Part shown: one piece after another, positions 30,105 through 58,584 of the stretch
How the letters are laid out: the number at the start of each line of letters is the position of its first letter
Numbering within the stretch: position 1 is the first letter of the stretch
Source: Candidatus Heimdallarchaeota archaeon
GTDB lineage: Archaea; Asgardarchaeota; Heimdallarchaeia; Heimdallarchaeales; Heimdallarchaeaceae
DNA: 64,000 nucleotides
NCBI GenBank assembly: GCA_019057815.1
Contig: JAHLWR010000015.1
Location: forward strand, 1-64,000
Direction: 5' to 3'
Position numbers and translations under genes: made by a program
Notes under the pieces: generated by a model
Told to the model about the DNA's origin: nothing
Seen by the model: the letters and a program-made list of their open reading frames with translations, nothing else
The model's database searches: none

Positions 30105-31973
30105 TTGGTGAAAAGTCTGAAAAAGGATTTTTTCTCAAAATTATGGAAGAAGGGTCAAATCTCTTATTTAACAGATGAGGAATTAAATGAATTAATCCAA
30201 TTATTAGAAACAGGTAATTTTGATAAAGGGCTCTCTTTAATTCGGCAAATAGATCGAAGGAGATACCTAGATATTGATGGTAGAGCAATTACTTATGCAT
30301 TTAAACTTTTTATATTATTCTTTAGGGGGGAACTCGAAGAAGACGATATGTTACTTGTTGCTGATGAATTAAAGGAACTAGAAAAACAAGTAAAAACCTT
30401 ACGAGGAAAAATCTTTGGGAAGCTTATGTATACAAGGGTTTTGGTGTATGCTAAACGTGAGGAAAAACATATTAAAACCTTAAATGAACAGTTGGAAAAA
30501 ATAGAGAAAAGCCAAACTGTTATAGATTCATATTTTCGAGATTGGGTTTTAATGAGTATAATTGTTACTCTAGGCATGATTTATGTGAATGATGGAGAGT
30601 ACGATTCTGCTCTTAATTGTGTTTCAGAATCTACTGCTCTAAATGATAAACATAATTGGAAAACTAGGCAAGTAGATGTTTTAGAAACTACAGGCATCTG
30701 CTACTACTTACAAGATGAATTGGAACTAGCAATTGTGAAATATCAAGAAGCAATCAATCTTGCAAAAGAAATAGGATATACTCTAGGAATGTTTACTAAT
30801 GAAAATAACTTGATAGCGTGTTTTTGCGAAAAAGGTGATTTTCAAAGAGCGTTGAAGTTAGCTAAAATTTTATATAACAAAGCTCAAGAAACAAGATTTA
30901 CCCATATAATTGGGTTTTCGTTGTTCAGTATTGTTCAATCACTATTAGAACTTGCCTTAGATGATCAAATAAAACCGTATTTAGATGAATTAGAGGAGTT
31001 AGCAACAACCTTTCCTCAAAATAATATTGTAAATTACTCTGCGCAATATTCAAAAGCCTTGGTTCTAAAATCAAGTAAACATTTCGCAGATCGAATCAAA
31101 GCTGAAACATTATTCACACAATTATTAATTGATACTCCTGGTGCTGTGATTTACCCAAAAATAGTTTTTCATTTAGCTGAACTCACTCTTAAGGAATTAC
31201 AAACTACAAATAACGAAGAATTATTAGTGGAGTTCGAACAGAAAGTGGATTTATTGAAAGAAAAAGCTTCGCAATTTAGATCTCATTCTATGATCGCAGA
31301 GACTTATCTTCTAGAATCTAAGCTAGCTTTAATTAAAACTAACCTTAAAGAATCGCAGCAAAAGCTTGATCAAGCATTAAAATTAGCAAGAGAGAAGAAT
31401 TTACATAGAATGGTATTTAAGGTCTCTAAAGCCTATGATAAGTTTTTAGATGAAAAAAATATTTGGGAAAAATTGATAACTAAAAAAGCTCCCCTTAAAG
31501 AGAGACTAGACAATGCTCAATTAGATAAACTGATTGATCAAGCGATTCATCGAAGGTTAGCAAAAATCGAAGAAGTTCCTCTAGAAGAATCAGTCTACCT
31601 TTTTATTCTAAGTGATGGAGGTTTGACAGTTTATTCTTACGATTTCCAAGAAGAAAAAGTTATAGACGAGCAACTTGTAGGCGGGTTCCTTTCCGCTATT
31701 AACACTTTTTGTCAAGAAATGTTCTCAACTAAAGGTTATCTTGAAAGAGTGAAATACCAAGACTATACCATCCTTCTTGAACCTATTGAAGAATCTTTCA
31801 TCTGCAGTTATGTTATAAAAGGCGATTCTTATCTTGCTAGCAAACGCTTGATTAAGCTTATTGATGAAATTACAGAATCTCCTCTTTATGCAGATTTTGA
31901 AGAGATAAAGACGACAGGATTGGTAAAGCTCGACTATGATAAAATGAAAGATATGATTATAGAGATCTTTTAA
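30105..31973 (+). CDS. TPR-repeat protein with C-terminal longin/roadblock-like domain
   Basis: Helical TPR repeats; C-terminal FILSDGGLTVYSYDF...DEQLVGGFLSAINTFCQEMF. Confidence 0.75.
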   Translation: MVKSLKKDFFSKLWKKGQISYLTDEELNELIQLLETGNFDKGLSLIRQIDRRRYLDIDGRAITYAFKLFILFFRGELEEDDMLLVADELKELEKQVKTLRGKIFGKLMYTRVLVYAKREEKHIKTLNEQLEKIEKSQTVIDSYFRDWVLMSIIVTLGMIYVNDGEYDSALNCVSESTALNDKHNWKTRQVDVLETTGICYYLQDELELAIVKYQEAINLAKEIGYTLGMFTNENNLIACFCEKGDFQRALKLAKILYNKAQETRFTHIIGFSLFSIVQSLLELALDDQIKPYLDELEELATTFPQNNIVNYSAQYSKALVLKSSKHFADRIKAETLFTQLLIDTPGAVIYPKIVFHLAELTLKELQTTNNEELLVEFEQKVDLLKEKASQFRSHSMIAETYLLESKLALIKTNLKESQQKLDQALKLAREKNLHRMVFKVSKAYDKFLDEKNIWEKLITKKAPLKERLDNAQLDKLIDQAIHRRLAKIEEVPLEESVYLFILSDGGLTVYSYDFQEEKVIDEQLVGGFLSAINTFCQEMFSTKGYLERVKYQDYTILLEPIEESFICSYVIKGDSYLASKRLIKLIDEITESPLYADFEEIKTTGLVKLDYDKMKDMIIEIF

Positions 31974-54723: not shown

Positions 54724-54977
54724 AAAAAGATTCCCTTATAAAACTATCTGTTGACCTTCTTATTTTTCCTTAATTACAAAGTTTCAAATCAAATATTACA
54801 AGACATAGAAGTAGTAAAAACCAAACCTTTGGGAATGATTAATCTAGGAGAAAAAGTAAGTTTGTGGAAGAGATTATTTAGACGATATAAACACAAATAA
54901 TTACTCCCTTATGATGGAAACTGGATAACGATAAAATACCCAAAAAGTTTAAATAAAAAAAAAGAATTAACGAGTCT

Positions 54978-57900
54978 ATGACCTCGAAAAGAAAAATAAT
55001 TTCAATTGTAATGTTATTGTGTTTTAGTCTCAATTTATTAGTTTTCACAATAGATAGAACTGCAGCAAAACTAGACGAAAAACAGCCGTTAGATCCTAAA
55101 GCAGAGCTCGATTCTCTCACAATAGCTGATTTAGATTGGCAGGCTTGTGATATTGACCGCGATATTACTCTACCGTTTACTCCCCGTTCAAGTGGAGGAT
55201 ACTCATATGATAAAACAGACACTTCTTTACATATGGAGGAAACGACTGGAACTTACCTTCTTAGGGCTGGATGGTATAGTAGTTTTGATATTACCAATGA
55301 AGTTTTTTCATTAGAGTTTGAAGGAAAAGCAAAAGCAGGACATATAGATGCAATTAATCTTGCTATGTATGTCTTTGATAATAAAACTAAAAAAAACCTG
55401 TATATGGTAGGTTGTTATCTTGGAACAGGTTTGGAAACTGATTATATATCTTTTAATTCAACTTTTATAACTCCGGATATTACTGAAATTCTCATATTTT
55501 TCCTTTACAGCGATGGTTTTTCAGCAAATTGGGGAATAGAATTTTGGATTCAGAATCTGGTCATTAAGACAGATATTGAAAAGTCTTCATTAATTGATGA
55601 AGAAGTATCGGAGATTTTCACTAGCAACCACTCTAAAACAATGGGGCTTTTTTGGAAAGATAACTATCTATTGAATACAGGATTAAATGCAACAAGTGGT
55701 ACGAAAAGTGTTGCTAAAATTAACCCTTTATCAGGTGAAGTTGTGGAGGTATACGAAGTTAATATGTTCTATGATTTAACTTTCGATGGTACGAATTTTT
55801 GGATAGTTTTTGCAGATAGAGATTATTATCTAGTCTACAAATATGATTCCTCCTTTAATAATGTAGGCTCAATTACTTTGCCTTTTGATCTTATTGGAGG
55901 TATAACAACGGATGGTACGGATTTATTTGTTGTAGATTATGAAGCTGATTTAATTCATAAGATAAACCGAAATACTGGGGCGATAATTTCATCTATTCCT
56001 GCACCTGGAACAAGAGTTAGAGGTTTGGAATATAGAGAAGGTTTTCTCTGGGCAACTGACTCAGATTCTCATCAGTTTTTCAAGATTTCTCTAACAGATG
56101 GCACTATACTTGAAACTTATAATTCTGCGTTTGAGAATCCTTTTGGAATAACTATTGATGATGAAGGTTTCATTTGGTTAACTTCAGTGTCATGCAAATT
56201 AATATACAAAACTAATGTCAATGTTATTTCAGACGCTGTCCCTCCTGTCATTACTCATCCTTCTGATATAACTTATCCTGAGGGTACATCTGGTCACTCT
56301 ATCATTTGGACTGGCACTGACGACAATCCTTCCATTTACTCAGTTTATCGTGATGACATTCTAGTTTCTTCTAGTTCTTGGTCTTCTGGTATAGGTATTA
56401 CTTACAATGTTGATGGCTTATCTGAAGGTACATACAACTTTACTATTGTCCTTACTGATGCTGATGACTTGTCTGTTAGTGACATTGTCTGGGTTACTGT
56501 TACTCATGCTTTCATTACTCCCATTATAAATCAACCTGATGACATAACATATACTGAGGGTACAACTGGTTATTCTATCGCCTGGACTGGCACTGACGAC
56601 AATCCTTCTACATATTCAATTTATCGTGATGATGTTCAAGTCTCTTATAGTTCTTGGTCTTCTGGTGTAGTGATTTTGTATAATGTTGATGGCTTATCTG
56701 AAGGTACCTACAACTTCACTATAGTCCTTATAGATGTAGATGGTTTATCTGTTAGTGATACTGTCTGGGTTACTGTTACTGTTATTCCTACTCCTCCAGT
56801 TGTTACTCACCCTGATGATATTACTTATATCACGGGTATAACTGGTTATTTCATCATTTGGACAGGTACTGACGACCTTCCTTCCACTTATTCAATCTAT
56901 CGTGATGGTGTTCTAGTCTCTTCTGGTTCTTGGTCTTCTGGTGTAGGAATATCGTATAATGTTGATGGCTTATCTGAAGGGATATACATCTTCACTATTG
57001 TCCTTATGTCTACTGATGGTTTTTCAGTTAGTGACACTGTTTGGGTCACTGTTACTCCTACTCCAATTCCACCTATTATTGATCAACCTGATGATATAAC
57101 TTATACTGAGGGTACAACTGGTTATTCCATCATTTGGACAGGTACTGATGACAACCCTGATTATTACTGGATTTATCGTGATGGTGCTCTAGTCTCTTCT
57201 GGTTCTTGGTCTTCCGGCGTAGGAATTGCATATAATGTTGATGGACTTATTAATGGTGTGTATAACTTCACTATCCTCATTACAGATTTTGACGGATTAT
57301 CTGTTAGCGACACTGTTTGGGTCACTGTTACTTCTGCTCCAATTCCACCTATTATTGATCAACCAGATGATATAACTTATACTGAGGGTACAACTAGCTA
57401 TTCTATCGTCTGGACAGGTACTGATGACAATCCTTCAGCATATTCTATTTACCGTGATGATGTTCTAGTCTCTTCTGGTTCTTGGTCTTCCGGCGTAGGA
57501 ATTGCATATAATGTTGATGGCTTATCTGAAGGTACCTACAACTTCACTATCCTTCTTGTGGATGACGATAGTTTTTCAGTTAGTGACACTGTTTGGGTCA
57601 CCGTTACTCCTGCTCATACTCCAACTCCTCCTTCTATTAATCATCCTGCTGACATAACTTATATTGAGGGTACAACTGGTTATTCTATCGTCTGGACAGG
57701 TACTGATGATAATCCTTCCACTTATTCAATTTATCGTGATGGTACTCTATTCTCTTCTGGTTCTTGGTCTTCTGGTGTAGGTATTGCTTATGATATTGAT
57801 GGCTTATCTGAAGGTACCTACAACTTCACTATTGCCCTTATGGATGTGGATGGTTTTTCAGTTAGTGACACTGTTTGGGTCACCGTTACTCCTGCTCATA

Positions 57901-58289
57901 CTCCAACTCCTCCTTCTATTAATCATCCTGCTGACATAACTTATATTGAGGGTACAACTGGTTATTCTATCGTCTGGACAGGTACTGATGATAATCCTTC
58001 CACTTATTCAATTTATCGTGATGGTACTCTATTCTCTTCTGGTTCTTGGTCTTCTGGTGTAGGTATTGCTTATGATATTGATGGCTTATCTGAAGGTACT
58101 TACAACTTCACTATTGTCCTTTTCGATACTGATGGTTTGTCTGTTAGTGATACTGTATTAGTTACAATACTAGAATCTGAAACAAGCAGTACAGTGAATG
58201 TAGGGTATAGTTCCTTAGCTATGGTTGTTTTAGTATCCCTAGTATCCCTAGTATTATACCGAAAGAAATATCTTAAGAAAAATAATTAG
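54978..58289 (+). CDS. Surface protein: beta-sandwich + beta-propeller + 7 Ig-like stalk repeats + TM anchor
   Basis: Signal peptide; GITTDGTDLFV and GLEYREGFLW blades; 7 x PP.I..P.DITY.EGTTG..I.WTGTDDNP repeats. Confidence 0.88.
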   Translation: MTSKRKIISIVMLLCFSLNLLVFTIDRTAAKLDEKQPLDPKAELDSLTIADLDWQACDIDRDITLPFTPRSSGGYSYDKTDTSLHMEETTGTYLLRAGWYSSFDITNEVFSLEFEGKAKAGHIDAINLAMYVFDNKTKKNLYMVGCYLGTGLETDYISFNSTFITPDITEILIFFLYSDGFSANWGIEFWIQNLVIKTDIEKSSLIDEEVSEIFTSNHSKTMGLFWKDNYLLNTGLNATSGTKSVAKINPLSGEVVEVYEVNMFYDLTFDGTNFWIVFADRDYYLVYKYDSSFNNVGSITLPFDLIGGITTDGTDLFVVDYEADLIHKINRNTGAIISSIPAPGTRVRGLEYREGFLWATDSDSHQFFKISLTDGTILETYNSAFENPFGITIDDEGFIWLTSVSCKLIYKTNVNVISDAVPPVITHPSDITYPEGTSGHSIIWTGTDDNPSIYSVYRDDILVSSSSWSSGIGITYNVDGLSEGTYNFTIVLTDADDLSVSDIVWVTVTHAFITPIINQPDDITYTEGTTGYSIAWTGTDDNPSTYSIYRDDVQVSYSSWSSGVVILYNVDGLSEGTYNFTIVLIDVDGLSVSDTVWVTVTVIPTPPVVTHPDDITYITGITGYFIIWTGTDDLPSTYSIYRDGVLVSSGSWSSGVGISYNVDGLSEGIYIFTIVLMSTDGFSVSDTVWVTVTPTPIPPIIDQPDDITYTEGTTGYSIIWTGTDDNPDYYWIYRDGALVSSGSWSSGVGIAYNVDGLINGVYNFTILITDFDGLSVSDTVWVTVTSAPIPPIIDQPDDITYTEGTTSYSIVWTGTDDNPSAYSIYRDDVLVSSGSWSSGVGIAYNVDGLSEGTYNFTILLVDDDSFSVSDTVWVTVTPAHTPTPPSINHPADITYIEGTTGYSIVWTGTDDNPSTYSIYRDGTLFSSGSWSSGVGIAYDIDGLSEGTYNFTIALMDVDGFSVSDTVWVTVTPAHTPTPPSINHPADITYIEGTTGYSIVWTGTDDNPSTYSIYRDGTLFSSGSWSSGVGIAYDIDGLSEGTYNFTIVLFDTDGLSVSDTVLVTILESETSSTVNVGYSSLAMVVLVSLVSLVLYRKKYLKKNN
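56241..58170 (+). repeat. Seven intragenic ~276-282 bp tandem repeats; last two nearly identical
   Basis: Sequence from 57572 recurs at 57854 (period 282). Confidence 0.95.
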
Positions 58290-58371
58290 AAGAGAACATC
58301 CCTAACTTTTTCTTCTTTCTCCTTTTTATGTCAATAAACTTCTATTCTTAATTCTTTGATAAAAGAGTAGT

Positions 58372-58483
58372 GGAGAGGGATCTCGTCCGTAAAAACGAAG
58401 AGTGAGTTCTGATTTTACAAGGGGGTTTGGGAGGATGTTTCCATCCCCCTCGGAAGATAGGGTTTGTGACGGAGCCCTTCTCC
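58372..58483 (-). ncRNA. Candidate novel structured ncRNA (~112 nt)
   Basis: GC-rich island; 5' GGAGAAGGGCUCCGU pairs with 3' ACGGACGAGAUCCCUCUCC; internal GGGGGAUG-GAAA-CAUCCUCC hairpin; TATA TTTAAATA at 58506-58513; U-rich tail. Confidence 0.65.
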
Positions 58484-58584
58484 AATAAATCAATAGAGAA
58501 AATGGTATTTAAAGCTTGAAAGACACCCCCATAATTGAAAGTAATAAAAACCCTAGAAAAATTCACTAAAAACGACACTCTATT

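Follow-up and report, generated by a model that had tools for sequence, protein, structure and literature searches.

A predicted small RNA gene downstream of XPD in a heimdallarchaeal genome and its relatives in the family Heimdallarchaeaceae

Stand-alone, trans-acting small RNAs (sRNAs) are represented in archaea by sRNA41, sRNA154, and sRNA162 of Methanosarcina mazei, and in bacteria the RsaE/RoxS-type sRNAs use repeated C-rich motifs to pair with G-rich ribosome-binding sites. For Asgard archaea, almost nothing is known about regulatory RNAs. The present study concerns a GC-rich element on the minus strand, 3' of the XPD gene, in a Candidatus Heimdallarchaeota genome (GenBank assembly GCA_019057815.1; 3.7 Mb in 48 contigs, 95% complete; hereafter G000). 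The stretch analysed comprises positions 1 to 64,000 of contig JAHLWR010000015.1 (64,000 nucleotides, nt; hereafter the window). An earlier note on this DNA, made from the letters, had proposed an unannotated, promoter-driven gene for a structured RNA, and the locus does look like such a gene; it has homologues, matches no Rfam family, and is under strong purifying selection. Sequence comparison indicates that the locus is very probably the sole G000 member of a lineage-restricted sRNA family distributed over two genera of the Heimdallarchaeaceae (family f1).

Conservation and family membership of the RNA gene

The features of the gene in the window are as follows, with RNA positions counted from the first G.

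58506-58513, minus strand: TATA box TTTAAATA of the RNA gene, read from the sequence; the same box type occurs across the family
58484-58505, minus strand: promoter spacer of 22 nt with a semi-conserved ATTTTC element (58503-58498), identical in the two species of the genus
58372-58483, minus strand: RNA body, positions 1-112, starting GGAG with its first G at 58483
58468-58483, minus strand: 5' strand of the genus-specific terminal stem (pair probabilities about 1); RNA 1-9 is also the 5' strand of hairpin P1, and GGAG is conserved in the family
58452-58466, minus strand: motif A, CAAACCCUAUCUUCC, comprising the first CAAACCC and the pyrimidine strand CU(A/C)UCUUCC; it is the P1 3' strand of the family and is unpaired when the terminal stem forms
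58430-58449, minus strand: hairpin P2, an 8-base-pair (bp) G-run/C-run stem with a GAAA loop; G5-6/C5-6 hairpins occur in all 17 family loci
58421-58431, minus strand: motif B, single-stranded CCCAAACC(CCC), containing the second CAAACCC and recurring 3' of P2 in all 17 loci
58388-58397, minus strand: small hairpin CGUUUUUACG with a T5 tract at 58395-58391 (RNA 89-93), a possible early terminator
58372-58387, minus strand: 3' strand of the terminal stem, part of a genus-only 3' extension with no counterpart in the 15 other loci
58361-58364, minus strand: U run, the probable transcription end as read from the sequence; U runs are common in the family

The other species of the same genus (G001; genus g1) carries the same element 3' of its XPD gene. 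From the TATA box to the start, the promoters of G000 and G001 show no differences, and the 112-nt bodies differ by two substitutions (A6 to U and U64 to C) and two insertions (+3 and +1 nt), whereas about 20 differences per 112 nt would be expected at the synonymous rate of the adjacent XPD gene (protein 94% identical; third positions of identical codons 82.5% identical). Such near-identity beside synonymous sites that are only 82.5% identical indicates that the RNA is under strong purifying selection. Conservation ends sharply on both sides, immediately before the promoter and immediately past the U run. In addition, the 25 nt past the T5 tract are identical in G001 (chance about 0.008 at the neutral rate), which argues that a read-through form of the transcript is functional. 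Two overlapping open reading frames (ORFs) of 55 and 76 amino acids (aa) are present at the locus, and the indels of +3 and +1 nt rule them out as conserved frames. A rearrangement separates the two genomes precisely where the RNA gene has its 3' end (window 58290-58371 versus G001 L002:1586-1660).

The box TTTAAATA, which the earlier note had placed on the minus strand ahead of a G start, occupies 58513-58506 and is followed by 22 nt and then G58483. The U-rich tail also reported there was located at 58364-58361, and reading the sequence to this U run gives a predicted transcript of about 120-123 nt. The reported GC-rich island was recovered as well, with 51.8% GC in the 112-nt body compared with 31-34% in the flanks and 32.8% in the whole genome. 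The T5 tract inside the RNA is a feature absent from the earlier note. Three ATG start codons in the window (45218, 46599, and 54948) stand exactly 22 nt after TTTAAATA, suggesting that the respective mRNAs are probably leaderless and lending independent support to the predicted RNA start at 58483. The genes used for this TATA-to-start calibration in G000 are:

45218-45250, plus strand: gene with ATG 22 nt past TTTAAATA
46599-46631, plus strand: gene with ATG 22 nt past TTTAAATA
54948-54980, plus strand: gene with ATG 22 nt past TTTAAATA

The promoters of the genes at 45218 and 46599 were near-identical to each other.

Collection of homologues, as suggested in the earlier note, yielded 17 loci in 16 genomes. 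A first covariance model from two sequences gave weak matches, which by eye shared the promoter, GGAG, CU.UCUUCC, a G-run hairpin, and CCCAAACC. When 400 Asgard genomes were scanned for the motif TCTTCY, 1-3 nt, GGGG, 6-26 nt, CCMAACC, with the reversed pattern as control, hairpin-type matches were confined to f1, and matches elsewhere were no more frequent than in that control; no family member was found among about 370 other Asgard genomes. A covariance model built from 11 members (R2) and run on 83 genomes of the class detected the 17 loci, all in f1, with E values of 1e-14 to 2e-4 per genome, and of 1.4e-16 to 3.5e-6 in a second scoring restricted to the retrieved loci. The G000 locus is an exact match to the motif pattern (58457-58424) and scored 65.6 bits with R2 (E about 2e-12).

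The RNA is present in both genomes of g1, with two loci in G001, and in 14 of the 25 genomes of genus g3. R2 gave no matches, even under lax filters, in the sister genera g2, g4 (two complete genomes), and g5, and a weak match in G009 was judged a non-member. In a metagenome scan, the matches listed were at chance level only, and none of them was recognised as a member by R2. Scans of G000 for AACCCTATCTT-type words and for the full motif returned, besides the locus itself, random coding matches only. The element is single-copy in G000 and reaches at most two copies per genome in its relatives; with one copy in the genome, it is not a MITE (miniature inverted-repeat transposable element), a possibility that the earlier note had raised. 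We are highly confident that a genuine, conserved gene for a small RNA of the P1-P2-CCCAAACC family lies here.

Known RNA classes were also considered. Rfam 15 gave no match at the gathering score in the whole window, only chance-level matches in 58200-58700 (E 0.15-4.5), and no match at E ≤ 0.5 in any of the 17 family loci, in line with the novelty proposed earlier; no paper was found describing this RNA. ARAGORN, which was run with no specific model for permuted or multi-intron tRNAs, detected no tRNA or tmRNA in the window, and no GTTCRANYC-type T-loop occurs in the sequence. C/D guide RNAs carry RUGAUGA/CUGA boxes with a K-turn, and H/ACA guides carry a pseudouridylation pocket, a K-turn or K-loop, and a 3' ACA; direct reading of the 112 nt found neither UGAUGA nor CUGA, and no ACA near the 3' end (CCACUACU), and Rfam matches of snoRNA type did not rise above chance. 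The earlier statement that the RNA has no tRNA T-loop and no C/D box signature thus agrees with both the ARAGORN result and the direct reading. Bulge-helix-bulge RNAs have two 3-nt bulges with a 4-bp helix between them; the terminal stem has two 1-nt bulges and one mismatch, with no 3-4-3 motif. As to a solitary CRISPR repeat, the repeat-like 34-mer has no second copy, and blastn-short over the whole genome returned nothing longer than 14 nt. A reading of TTCC..GGGGG as similar to an origin recognition box (ORB) was rejected because the element is single-copy and promoter-driven, with no inverted ORB repeats and no adjacent orc1/cdc6. That the scans overlooked a diverged representative of a known class, whether a tRNA with an intron or in permuted order, a guide RNA of the C/D or H/ACA kind, a solitary CRISPR repeat, or a circular RNA of bulge-helix-bulge origin, is extremely unlikely: the weak similarity to CRISPR-DR18 (the best Rfam match, 18 bits against a 50-bit threshold, E = 1.5) points that way, but the Rfam and ARAGORN nulls, the lack of the diagnostic boxes and motifs, and the single-copy 34-mer do not.

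The earlier note had also found the RNA loosely reminiscent of Y, vault, or 6S RNAs. Y RNAs are recognised by a terminal stem with a bulged Ro-binding helix together with a Ro60/TROVE protein, vault RNAs by association with the major vault protein and by Pol III box A/B, and 6S RNA as an RNA of about 180 nt, largely double-stranded with an open-promoter-like central bubble, that binds the bacterial sigma-70 holoenzyme; to our knowledge, sigma-70 is absent from archaea. The Ro/TROVE domain (PF05731) was not found in G000, while control genomes gave matches, and the terminal stem is limited to one genus. No Rfam match to 6S RNA was obtained, and the size of about 60-125 nt and the successive hairpins of the family differ from it. 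The likeness to Y and 6S RNAs is accordingly not supported; for vault RNA the result that bears on it is the Rfam null, since PF01505 (major vault protein) was found neither in G000 nor anywhere in the control search.

Family architecture and folding of the G000 RNA

All 17 loci have a TATA box (15 TTTAWATA and 2 variants) at 21-24 nt before the RNA start, with 22-23 nt in 15 loci, and most family promoters carry an A(A/T)TT(T/C)C element at the same place in the spacer. The core is ordered as the GGAG start and P1, a linker of 2-4 nt, P2, single-stranded (A)CCCAAACC, and a U run. The 5' strand of P1 starts GGAG, and its 3' strand, CU(C/A)UCUUCC, is near-invariant and usually has a bulged U; among 11 aligned members, C24, T25, T27, C28, T29, T30, and C31 are invariant and C32 nearly so. 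The upper part of P1 differs wholly between subgroups yet is paired in each (GGGUUAG/CUAACC, AGAGU..CUUU/AAAG..ACUCU, GAUAG/CUAUC, and GAGGU/ACCUC). P2 is a G5-6/C5-6 hairpin with an A-rich loop in all 17 loci and is followed at its 3' side, again in all 17, by CCCAAACC or a close variant (CCCAACCC, CCCUACCC, or GCCAACCC). A U run of at least 3 U terminates the predicted RNA in 16 of the 17 loci, the tail in G041 being CUUCUUCUUC only.

Length varies among the members. In the short forms (58-72 nt, 8 loci) the U run directly follows the core, and in the long forms (103-117 nt, 7 loci) a second module repeats the pyrimidine motif and adds a third G/C hairpin (P3) before a U-rich end; CAAACC is also repeated in the second module of four long-form loci. 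The G000 RNA and the XPD-adjacent copy of G001 have no third G/C hairpin, but instead about 50 nt, the last 16 of which are complementary to the 5' end. Homology of this 3' extension to the second module of the long g3 forms was considered, and the alignment was ambiguous.

Folded individually, 13 of the 17 RNAs have a minimum free energy (MFE) structure of P1 and P2 (with or without P3), and one more has P1 with two nested G/C hairpins (z -0.8 to -4.1). In alignment A5, 87% of cells are paired, compared with 83% in shuffles, and 7 of the 15 pairs have changed on both sides, a number reached in 1 of 500 shuffles; every slid register scored lower. In P2, 4 of the 6 modelled pairs have changes on both sides. 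These data bear on whether the stretch is a functional RNA at all, or rather a leftover of high GC content or an element acting in the DNA itself (a protein-binding site, for instance, or a terminator or insulator between convergent genes), which we judge to be very unlikely. The transcript is only predicted, the antisense sequence folds about as well, and the G/C hairpins could form in DNA; against this, a TATA box 21-24 nt upstream is combined with a same-strand U run in 16 of the 17 loci, conservation spans the promoter and the 112 nt and stops at both ends, changes in both hairpins keep pairing (G-U included), and the family occurs in several gene contexts.

In the G000 RNA, the long bulged stem that the earlier note had drawn between the 5' and 3' ends was recovered, with RNA 1-16 (58483-58468) pairing with RNA 97-112 (58387-58372) through 14 bp at an ensemble pair probability of about 1.0; A6 and A101 are bulged out of this stem, and C10 is mismatched with U104. 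With its tail, the RNA of 122 nt reaches an MFE of -37.7 kcal/mol (z = -3.2; none of 200 shuffles was as stable), and the 112-nt body by itself has z = -2.65. The 8-bp hairpin with a GAAA tetraloop is likewise present at 58449-58430, flanked by the two CAAACCC copies at RNA 18-24 (58466-58460) and RNA 55-61 (58429-58423), as first described. In this hairpin RNA G35-G42 pairs with C47-C54, whereas the single-sequence MFE pairs the G run instead with CCCCC at RNA 59-63; since the latter alternative is not conserved and homology favours the former, the GAAA hairpin is taken as the conserved P2. The closed stem is, however, not the defining shape of the RNA, as had been supposed from the single sequence: it is genus-specific, and 13 of the 15 other members fold as two or three successive hairpins with no closing stem.

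A P1 of 9 positions, interrupted by one A/A mismatch and a bulged U, is also possible in G000 and competes with the terminal stem for one 5' strand. For the full-length RNA, the terminal-stem fold is better than the best P1 fold by 6 kcal/mol in G000 and by 3 kcal/mol in G001, and it leaves CAAACCCUAUCUUCC and CCCAAACC unpaired on both sides of P2. The first 70 nt of the G000 RNA, which are transcribed first, fold into P1 and a hairpin on the P2 G run, like the rest of the family. The A6-to-U substitution of G001 falls at a bulge position of the terminal stem, but in P1 it turns the A/A mismatch into a U-A pair; as it improves P1 in G001, both folds may matter. Moreover, at the T5 tract (RNA 89-93) archaeal RNA polymerase could, judging from the sequence, stop in part of the transcripts and so never reach the 3' strand of the terminal stem.

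Around the pyrimidine strand, about 30 nt are nearly the same in both G001 copies, suggesting that the XPD-adjacent copy is probably a duplication within g1. At the G000 site syntenic to the second G001 locus (C40, about 79150), the downstream flank is 97% identical and the RNA is absent, which points to loss of the second copy from G000. The upstream gene differs there in G000 (C40, about 79080-79240, minus strand, versus G001 L010:1440-1640), suggesting a recent loss or replacement. A duplicated copy would thus have settled 3' of XPD in g1 and gained the 3' extension, the last 16 nt of which would pair with the 5' end, so that the terminal stem out-competes P1 in the full-length RNA. The choice between P1 and the terminal stem might then act as a built-in masking and unmasking of motif A.

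A bolder version of this idea is a strand-exchange riboregulator, in which the 5' GGAG strand pairs either with the first pyrimidine motif or with the second copy or 3' extension, thereby switching an exposed C-rich motif and controlling adjacent type I membrane proteins with a protein partner. We consider it quite improbable. If it were true, it would represent a new class of archaeal regulatory RNA with defined switching, specific to the closest archaeal relatives of eukaryotes.

Genomic context and mode of action

The earlier note had described the promoter as regulon-type and the RNA as possibly part of a recombination regulon, and neither reading was supported. XPD-adjacent placement is limited to the two g1 genomes, and the other 15 loci lie elsewhere. 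In addition, TTTAAATA behaves as the generic strong TATA box of G000, occurring 10 times in the window compared with 16 expected by chance, and an equal distance of 22 nt separates it from the starts of unrelated leaderless genes. Lacking enrichment and standing ahead of unrelated genes, it speaks neither for a recombination regulon nor for a promoter class of its own. The extended pattern, TATA plus A(A/T)TT(T/C)C, has 16 sites in G000, and only one other (C29:6388) closely resembles the RNA promoter. There, at about 6388 to 6300 on the minus strand of C29, a near-identical promoter (TTTAAATACCATTTTCTC) precedes a different, partly GC-rich sequence starting GGUGGGGUAGAUGAUUA, and in G011 (L003:1496-1650) this promoter stands before a further stretch rich in GC, about 130 nt long. 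By their sequence, these two stretches may be further unannotated small RNA genes.

The gene beyond the RNA in G000 is convergent and encodes a 1103-aa surface protein with Ig/PKD repeats; the conservation of the RNA in G000 next to a convergent gene suggests that it is independent of the downstream gene. Beyond the XPD-adjacent RNA of G001 lies a co-oriented gene of the endonuclease/exonuclease/phosphatase family. At 13 of the 14 g3 loci, the RNA is followed on the same strand by a gene for the same protein of about 200 aa, whose start codon lies about 100-190 nt past the RNA. The protein is built from a signal peptide, about 130 aa of ectodomain, a single membrane helix, and a tail that is basic or a zinc ribbon; it matched no Pfam family above threshold. 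The members of this type I membrane-protein family are:

L007:1763-2371 and L006:1016-1702: family members at two g3 loci
11 other g3 loci: further family members
C33:68706-69440 (G000): distant homologue

The family, of about 200-250 aa, has the ectodomain motif EEGYYFLV.DNTG and a tail that is sometimes a CxxC...CxxC zinc ribbon. Upstream, an MFS transporter gene is found at five g3 loci and at the second G001 locus. The gene that follows the RNA at the latter locus encodes a protein that likewise combines a signal peptide, a single membrane helix, and a basic tail but is unrelated in sequence to the g3 protein.

This arrangement raises the possibility that the RNA is a cis-regulatory leader or attenuator of the membrane-protein gene, with the XPD-adjacent copy a displaced orphan that kept its promoter, which we regard as unlikely though worth keeping in view. 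It would explain why the same gene stands on the same strand about 100-190 nt past the U run at 13 of the 14 g3 loci and why 13 g3 genomes have both RNA and membrane protein and 10 have neither; the second G001 locus also precedes a gene for a protein of the same build, and the U run at the RNA end is attenuator-like. As the g3 genomes are related, however, the co-occurrence may simply mark a subclade. Furthermore, most g3 loci have TATA-like boxes in the interval from the RNA to the downstream gene, suggesting that the gene is probably transcribed separately from its own promoter, and the short forms have no visible terminator/antiterminator alternative. The G000 copy has no same-strand downstream gene and the G001 copy stands before an unrelated nuclease-family gene, yet both are strongly constrained, and the distant homologue of the membrane protein in G000 (C33:68706) has no RNA upstream.

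Another view is that the RNA serves as a protein-binding decoy, sponge, or scaffold, as Y RNA, 6S RNA, or CsrB do, in which the module (CAAACC, UAUCUUCC, and a G/C hairpin) is the binding site, present once in the short forms and two to three times in the long forms; we find this unlikely but, like the cis-linked role, a serious contender. The same motifs are repeated in modular fashion in the long forms, and the pyrimidine strand is near-invariant though mostly base-paired, suggesting that it is read as sequence and not only as helix. The target searches, moreover, found no RNA target. Conversely, a short form with a single module would make a poor sponge, no Ro/TROVE gene was found in G000, no conserved neighbouring gene for an RNA-binding protein was found at the family loci, and no candidate partner was identified.

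The best supported mode of action is that of a trans-acting riboregulator, because the gene is stand-alone and conserved even with no gene downstream on its strand, and the RNA has stable hairpins and two conserved segments that are unpaired in the favoured fold. We consider it about evenly balanced whether the locus is an independently transcribed small noncoding RNA gene of the family that acts in trans in this way. In such a role, the exposed C/A-rich and pyrimidine-rich motifs would pair with purine- or G-rich RNA targets or bind a protein.

Several observations weigh against the trans-acting riboregulator. Complements of motifs A and B were not convincingly enriched near G000 gene starts, in a count confounded by the TTG inside the motif. 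The best complement of 12-13 nt (13 bp, C38:199258) lies inside an ORF, and duplexes between the RNA and the start region of the neighbouring mRNA were no better than shuffles in most genomes, with no consistent site. The co-occurrence with the downstream membrane-protein gene in g3 is explained no less well by a cis-linked role. Sense and antisense strands are about equally stable when folded, and as folding energy does not favour the former, the strand assignment depends on the promoter and the U run. Covariation support for P1 and P2 in the model is moderate, below R-scape grade, because the 17 sequences are related and the alignment was fitted to the model. In addition, the transcription, ends, and abundance of the RNA are all predicted from sequence, and termination at the T5 tract may occur before the terminal stem forms. 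One exact complement was observed in another RNA, namely GGGUUUGGG in the anticodon arm of an intron-containing tRNA-Pro(UGG) at C21:30283, which is complementary to CCCAAACCC of the RNA; it is taken as chance because the motif variants of the family do not track GGGUUUGGG. The apparent tRNA-Pro(UGG) gene itself, with an intron after the anticodon loop, spans about 30243-30345 on the plus strand of G000 C21.

Comparison with known systems

On present evidence, the RNA is an orphan, lineage-specific sRNA, of a kind that most prokaryotes have many of; it is not eukaryote-like and is not part of the neighbouring DNA-repair module. What is new is a delimited family of RNAs that Rfam lacks; it counts 17 loci, is defined by its promoter, two hairpins with support, and two conserved motifs in single strands, and can be used for annotation. 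The co-occurrence of the RNA with a membrane-protein gene in g3 and the terminal stem that competes with an ancestral hairpin in g1 offer handles for its study.

Among the described systems, CsrB/RsmZ sponges share with the family a short motif repeated beside hairpins and a module number that varies among relatives, although the family has only one to three modules and its motif is not GGA; we know of no CsrA-like partner in archaea. The likeness to Y RNA/Ro60 (in bacteria, Yrl with Rsr) applies to g1 only, where a long bulged end stem encloses an open pyrimidine/C-rich interior in about 110-120 nt. It differs in that the terminal stem is not conserved in the family, G000 has no Ro/TROVE gene, and no Rfam Y RNA match was obtained. 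As in RsaE/RoxS, at least two unpaired C-rich motifs lie around stable hairpins and the 3' end is a hairpin with a U run, whereas the RNA belongs to another domain of life, is unrelated in sequence, has the motif CCCAAACC / CUAUCUUCC and not UCCC, and shows no enrichment of its complements at start sites. The sRNAs of M. mazei have no sequence or Rfam relationship to the family, and the competition between the 5' hairpin and the terminal stem is particular to g1, but the two have in common that they are small and intergenic with their own promoters, combine hairpins with exposed C-rich or pyrimidine-rich strands, are narrow in lineage, and sometimes occur as duplicated modules with the same seed.

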